Source of the DNA: Escherichia coli
Lineage (GTDB): Bacteria > Pseudomonadota > Gammaproteobacteria > Enterobacterales > Enterobacteriaceae
Length of the DNA stretch: 64,000 nucleotides
NCBI RefSeq assembly: GCF_024223415.1
Contig: NZ_CP100500.1
Direction: 5' to 3' (one strand)
The translations under genes were made by a program, and so were the position numbers. The notes beneath the pieces were generated by a model. That model ran no database searches. It saw only the letters and a program-made list of their open reading frames with translations, and was not told the origin of the DNA. Below are positions 35,392 to 35,469 of the stretch, one piece after another; position 1 is the first letter of the stretch, and each line of letters starts with the position of its first letter.

Positions 35392-35420
35392 AATGCGACC
35401 AATCATCGTAATGAATATGA

Positions 35421-35443
35421 GAAGTGTGATATTATAACATTTC
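35421..35443. promoter_or_regulatory. Zur box in the divergent znuA / znuCB promoter region
   Basis: GAAGTGTGATATTATAACATTTC resembles the Zur palindrome GAAATGTTATANTATAACATTTC. Confidence 0.65.
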
Positions 35444-35469
35444 ATGACTACTGCAAGACTAAAATTAAC

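Follow-up and report, generated by a model that had tools for sequence, protein, structure and literature searches.

The 78 nt that separate znuA from znuC in this Escherichia coli chromosome almost certainly contain a Zur operator common to the divergent znuA(-mepM) and znuCB promoters, at which Zur would act as a zinc-dependent repression switch. The site is a good match to Zur-binding DNA by consensus, by structure-derived pattern and by weight matrix, and it is placed directly 5' of zinc-acquisition genes, between znuA and znuCB; none of our results speaks against a Zur operator. Sequence identity, scores and genomic context come from our analysis of the window, by which we mean the whole stretch of 64,000 nt under study; the literature on the identical K-12 operator supplies the data on Zur binding and its stoichiometry, on base contacts, on dependence on zinc and on repression in vivo.

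The znu locus and its surroundings

End-to-end alignment revealed that positions 1-44295 of the window are collinear with positions 1907191-1951490 of K-12 MG1655 at 98.85% identity. The gene order around the site is lpxM, mepM, znuA, znuC, znuB, ruvB, ruvA, and the scores of ZnuA, ZnuC, ZnuB and MepM against their NCBIfam models are all far above the curated cut-offs (Table 1). On one side of the gap between the divergent genes, at 35391-35389, is the minus-strand start codon of znuA, and on the other, at 35470, the ATG of znuC. The zur gene is absent from the 64-kb window; in K-12 it lies about 2.3 Mb from the znu locus. It is a core gene of E. coli, and since it falls outside the window, we assumed from species membership that Zur is present in this genome.

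Table 1. Coordinates of the znu genes, the operator and the putative promoter elements (window positions).
Feature	Position	Strand	Remarks
mepM (yebA)	33121..34443	-	M23 murein endopeptidase; NF008652, 892 bits
znuA	34459..35391	-	periplasmic zinc-binding protein, regulated; NCBIfam NF007091 equivalog, 523 bits; RefSeq annotation of identical DNA
znuA-znuC intergenic region	35392..35469	.	78 nt; contains both divergent promoters and the operator; equals MG1655 1942584-1942661 except at 35404
Operator bound by (Zur2)2, DNase-protected / crystallised	35420..35450	.	31 bp; placed from the purine register
Zur box GAAGTGTGATATTATAACATTTC	35421..35443	.	23 nt; 11-1-11 imperfect inverted repeat; consensus and PWM match
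Two-dimer core TGTGATATTATAACATTTCA	35425..35444	.	structure-based; dyad between 35434 and 35435
Four RNNNY half-sites	35426-30, 35431-35, 35434-38, 35439-43	.	read within the TGTGATATTATAACATTTCA region
Extended -10 of PznuC, TGaTATTAT	35427..35435	+	putative position, read by eye
Candidate -10 of PznuA	35429..35436	-	putative: TAATAT 35434->35429 with a 16-nt spacer, or TATAAT 35436->35431 with a 14-nt spacer
-35-like TTGCAG of PznuA	35451..35456	-	putative; contains the conserved TGCAA block
znuC	35470..36225	+	ABC transporter ATPase, regulated; NF007090 equivalog, 533 bits
znuB	36222..37007	+	permease; 4-nt overlap with the znuC stop, same operon; NF007089 equivalog, 534 bits

Elsewhere in the window, collinearity with K-12 ends at 44295 (K-12 1951490), about 95 nt into yecE, a known attachment site of Stx phages. 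The remaining 44296-64000 belong to a lambdoid prophage, which the window reads from its tail end; its products include a major head protein, tail fibre proteins, a Lom-like membrane protein, a central tail fibre J of 1169 aa and a tape measure protein of 853 aa. At least 80% of these 20 kb is covered in only one of 5426 complete E. coli genomes, and the window stops short of any prophage toxin or lysis region. Rfam searches identified the antisense sRNA pair SraC/RyeA and SdsR/RyeB at 15912-16056 (175 and 114 bits) and, at 1-421 on the minus strand, a cspA-type thermoregulator 5' UTR (127 bits) that lies upstream of cspC by K-12 coordinates.

Recognition of the Zur box

The sequence-only reading had proposed a near-palindromic Zur operator between divergent znuA and znuCB genes, and both parts of this proposal held: the repeat GAAGTGTGATATTATAACATTTC was found at 35421-35443, and equivalog models confirmed the flanking genes. 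Nine of the 11 positions of its arms pair. Palindromy was dropped as a test of significance because repeats of this quality occur at chance frequency: the window contains 13 palindromes of the 11-1-11 type with 9/11 pairing, as compared to 8.6 +/- 3.3 in Markov shuffles. Taken alone, the palindromy of the znu site is no more than chance, while its consensus match and its position exceed chance.

Comparison of GAAGTGTGATATTATAACATTTC with the gamma-proteobacterial Zur-box consensus GAAATGTTATANTATAACATTTC revealed agreement at 20 of the 22 specified positions, with 2 mismatches. The site at 35421-35443 is the sole match to GAAATGTTATANTATAACATTTC at 3 or fewer mismatches on both strands of the 64 kb, and none of 100 dinucleotide shuffles contained any match at that threshold. 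A structure-derived E. coli pattern, TGWNAYRWTATAWYRTNWCA (PMC4219657), is matched without mismatch at 35425-35444. The bare RNNNY skeleton RNNNYRNNRYNNYRNNNY, by contrast, does not discriminate, with 269 matches in the window versus 274 expected.

To avoid circularity, we scored the window with a leave-one-out position weight matrix (PWM), symmetrised and built only from the Zur boxes of the validated K-12 operators ykgM, zinT and pliG, with the znu site excluded. The znu site scored 25.6 bits and ranked first of ~64,000 positions, and the runner-up reached 14.2 bits. In 200 simulations the maximum score per 64 kb averaged 11.7 bits and never rose above 22.1 bits, while the three training sites themselves scored 27.9-30.6 bits. 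We also searched the window for a second Zur site with the same matrix; the best candidate, GTACTGCTATCACAAAACAATAA at 47073-47095, is the 14.2-bit runner-up, lies within the range of the null maxima and is located inside the prophage tail region, and is probably a chance match. Formal scoring, which had been named beforehand as a possible refutation of the Zur reading, thus gave a good match on three measures: 2 mismatches to GAAATGTTATANTATAACATTTC, none to TGWNAYRWTATAWYRTNWCA and the top PWM score.

Two divergent promoters whose -10 elements overlap might also produce an AT-rich near-palindrome fortuitously, in the absence of any bound regulator. The commonness of 9/11 palindromes in the window (13, with 8.6 expected) and the presence of TATAAT/TATTAT-like hexamers at the centre of the repeat on both strands are in keeping with such an origin, but promoter hexamers explain neither the outer arms (GAAgTGT...ACATTTC), which match the Zur consensus and were reproduced by no shuffle, nor a score of 25.6 bits derived from three unrelated Zur operators. 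The core also recurs in other species 5' of zinc-acquisition genes (39 among the 120 matches listed), and Zur binding to the identical sequence has been documented directly by footprint, crystal structure and the effect of a zur deletion (PMC4219657). We regard a fortuitous palindrome as extremely improbable.

The palindrome could instead be a Fur box, and the locus iron-regulated, since Fur is a paralogue of Zur and AT-rich inverted repeats are recognised by both proteins (PMC4219657). The Fur box GATAATGATAATCATTATC is likewise an AT-rich inverted repeat to which a Fur-family metalloregulator binds as overlapping dimers. However, no match to this 19-nt consensus overlaps the palindrome: the best Fur matches in the intergenic region, at 35389 and 35401, have 7 mismatches in 19 positions, and 132 sites in the window are as good or better. 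Moreover, the central TATA, which the Fur consensus lacks, and its contacts with Tyr45 are specific to Zur (PMC4219657). With the consensus match missing at the site, we rejected a Fur box, to which we assign next to no probability.

Operator register, promoters and mechanism

The K-12 znuA/znuCB Zur operator was reportedly studied by Patzer & Hantke in 2000 and by Outten & O'Halloran in 2001, and it is, to our knowledge, the only Fur-family operator for which a protein-DNA crystal structure exists. The window shares with K-12 the locus, the gene order, the 78-nt spacing, the whole 31-bp operator and 77 of the 78 intergenic bases; the one difference, C here and A in K-12 at 35404, lies 16 nt outside the operator, so that the comparison to K-12 suggested by the sequence-only reading supports its assignment. 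Gilston et al. (2014) determined the structure of (Zur2)2 on 31 bp of the K-12 znu promoter at 2.5 A (PDB 4MTD), with contacts to purines G7, A11', A12, A15, A16', G19', A20 and G24' and a dyad between bases 15 and 16 (PMC4219657). If base 1 is set at 35420, all eight contacted purines are correct in identity, which maps the protected DNA to 35420-35450; we infer that this tightly constrained interval is the operator. The original coordinates, 35392-35469, thus delimit the intergenic region exactly and not the palindrome itself, the operator proper spanning ~35420-35450.

On the K-12 znu operator, Zur binds in a cooperative, all-or-none manner with a Kd-app of 8.2e-18 M^2; Arg65 and Tyr45 of Zur read purine N7 atoms, the sensory zinc is needed for binding, and repression in vivo amounts to 6.6-fold when wild type is compared to delta-zur (PMC4219657). 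Loss of zur derepresses the znu genes (PMC4219657; PMC7567609), and mutagenesis by Reg-Seq, for which the znu site served as a gold standard, recovered it as a Zur repressor site at both znuA and znuCB (PMC7567609).

The E. coli operators of zinT, ykgM-ykgO (L31p/L36p) and pliG have in common with the znu site a TGTTATA-N-TATAACA-type core and the RNNNY architecture. The znu site differs from them in serving two divergent promoters at once, and its left arm departs from the consensus (GAAGTGTGATA versus GAAATGTTATA). Its affinity for Zur is ~150-330 times weaker than that of zinT or L31p, and its 6.6-fold repression compares to 560-984-fold (PMC4219657 Table 3). The znu site is therefore among the weaker Zur operators although its consensus score is the best.

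A consensus sigma-70 and terminator scan of 35250-35620 called no promoter or terminator, so the promoter hexamers of Table 1 were assigned by eye and by analogy and do not constitute independent evidence. An extended -10 site for RNA polymerase is reported to lie inside the operator DNA (Fig. 1B legend, PMC4219657), and the znu promoters appear to be non-canonical, with an extended -10 and a weak -35. Mapped E. coli start-site coordinates for znuCp and znuAp were not found in the literature searched; from the putative -10 elements, transcription would start at ~35442 (znuC) and ~35422 (znuA), inside the repeat.

In Yersinia pestis, znuA and znuCB are likewise divergent, and primer extension and footprinting showed that the Zur box overlaps each of the two -10 elements (PMC2706843). 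The distances from the box to the two start codons are also alike, at -45..-27 and -49..-31 in Y. pestis and, for the 19-nt core, -47..-29 and -50..-32 here; Y. pestis differs in having a second footprinted intergenic region that lacks a Zur box, whereas a single protected region is reported for E. coli (PMC2706843). Because the Y. pestis box covers both -10 elements, by analogy one bound complex here most likely occludes both PznuC and PznuA.

The mechanism is already published for K-12, and at this site it would operate as follows. With enough free zinc in the cytosol, Zur dimers would have both zinc sites filled. Two such dimers would bind opposite faces of the ~31 bp at 35420-35450 cooperatively, as a dimer of dimers, each monomer reading one purine-N-N-N-pyrimidine unit via Arg65 and Tyr45. 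Bound Zur would cover the extended -10 of PznuC and, as we infer, the -10 of PznuA, so that RNA polymerase could not reach the open complex at either promoter. As zinc falls, Zur would lose its sensory zinc and come off the DNA; znuA (probably with mepM) and znuCB would then be transcribed, and the ZnuABC importer would be made.

Other regulators have been linked to the same intergenic region, and OxyR or SoxS might be its main control. Databases contain OxyR sites annotated at both znuA and znuCB (PMC7567609), and SoxS is said to raise znuACB expression (cited in PMC12818246). According to the same paper, however, SoxS activation is indirect, gel shifts having failed to detect binding (PMC12818246), and the OxyR site at znuCp is an annotation of weak confidence for which Reg-Seq detected no footprint (10.1101/2025.05.13.653802). 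Main control by either protein is very unlikely; OxyR and SoxS would at most supplement Zur control and not replace it.

Conservation and variants

The region is present in 5424 of 5426 complete E. coli genomes, and a 38-41-nt segment with the operator is identical in about 5030-5125 of the 5426. At 35404, the C of the window is a commoner allele than the A of K-12, and 31 of 40 evenly sampled E. coli records match the window exactly. Most variants in the sampled E. coli affect the outer part of the left arm or positions beyond the box (35404, 35417, 35421, 35424 and 35446); at position 35424, which is off the Zur consensus in E. coli, strains and E. albertii carry G, C or A. Core variants are rare: T35430C in strain hubt-sl and C35443T in O157:H7 380-94 are both transitions at Zur contact positions. 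Both keep the pyrimidine of the RNNNY unit, an anecdotal pattern with these two examples only. Changes in the operator core had been suspected in the ~150 E. coli genomes that megablast did not return; those sampled mostly carry changes at 35417, 35421 and 35424, with rare core transitions.

The variants also bear on whether the inverted repeat works as RNA, as a hairpin in the 5' UTR of the znuA or znuC mRNA that acts on translation or stability. As RNA, the 23-mer folds into a 7-bp stem of -4.7 kcal/mol, but this stem is weak and AT-rich, and Rfam has no family match at the region. Neither T35430C nor C35443T is accompanied by a compensatory change in the opposite arm, and the variation follows the protein-contact pattern. 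In addition, with the putative -10 elements and starts (~35442 and ~35422) inside the repeat, each transcript would include at most one arm and none would carry both. For its weak stem, the missing Rfam family and the predicted starts within the repeat, we rejected the hairpin and give it only a negligible chance, in favor of DNA bound by Zur.

Beyond E. coli, a plain-DNA scan of the genomes of ~100,000 species with the 17-nt core pattern RTGTKATANTATAACAT returned at least 120 loci. Among the 120 matches listed, 40 lie within 600 nt of ZnuA, ZnuB, ZinT, YkgM, YkgO or a close ZnuC homologue; in 39 of these listed matches the site is 5' of that zinc-acquisition gene, and 20 of the 120 fall between divergent znuA and znuC. 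By rough estimate, a random genomic position would show the same proximity in well under 1% of cases. As the loci were chosen by the core pattern, conservation of the core across these species is partly by construction.

The intergenic region measures 76-78 nt in nine other Enterobacterales aligned with the window. Across these 10 intergenic regions the flanks have diverged, and outside the core just one block, TGCAA at 35452-35456, is invariant. This block reads TTGCA on the minus strand, which fits a -35 of PznuA, and is likely to be that element.

In Enterobacter cloacae, Citrobacter sp. FP75 and an Enterobacter MAG, a perfect Zur-box core was found 5' of a zinT homologue, and across the box lies an ABC-ATPase-like open reading frame with 27-30% identity to ZnuC. 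This frame, which has no counterpart beside zinT in K-12, may encode an extra Zur-controlled transporter.

Significance and the reach of Zur control

The sequence-only reading described the site as ordinary core regulation, and the K-12 counterpart, which has been footprinted, crystallised with Zur and found to be repressed in vivo (PMC4219657), bears this out. The znu operator is already known as textbook core regulation, and no new biology follows from its recognition here; the value lies in the correct annotation of the site that turns high-affinity zinc uptake on and off in E. coli. Scores of other candidate metal-regulator sites in this genome may also be judged with the znu site as a positive control, and its detection illustrates that a real operator can be recognised from raw sequence alone.

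The sole loose end of interest is whether the operator governs mepM as well, a link that has already been proposed: co-transcription of znuA and mepM was put forward together with a report that zinc starvation induces expression in E. coli (PMC6381278). In the window, mepM starts with GTG 15 nt past the znuA stop; the gap (34443-34461) includes the Shine-Dalgarno sequence GAGGAAG and leaves no room for a terminator. This arrangement suggests that mepM is probably co-transcribed with znuA and hence under the same operator, so that Zur release may raise MepM too; a Zur-independent promoter inside znuA may instead drive mepM. On balance we lean towards an operator whose reach extends beyond zinc import, such that release of Zur would raise MepM and couple cell-wall remodelling to zinc starvation.
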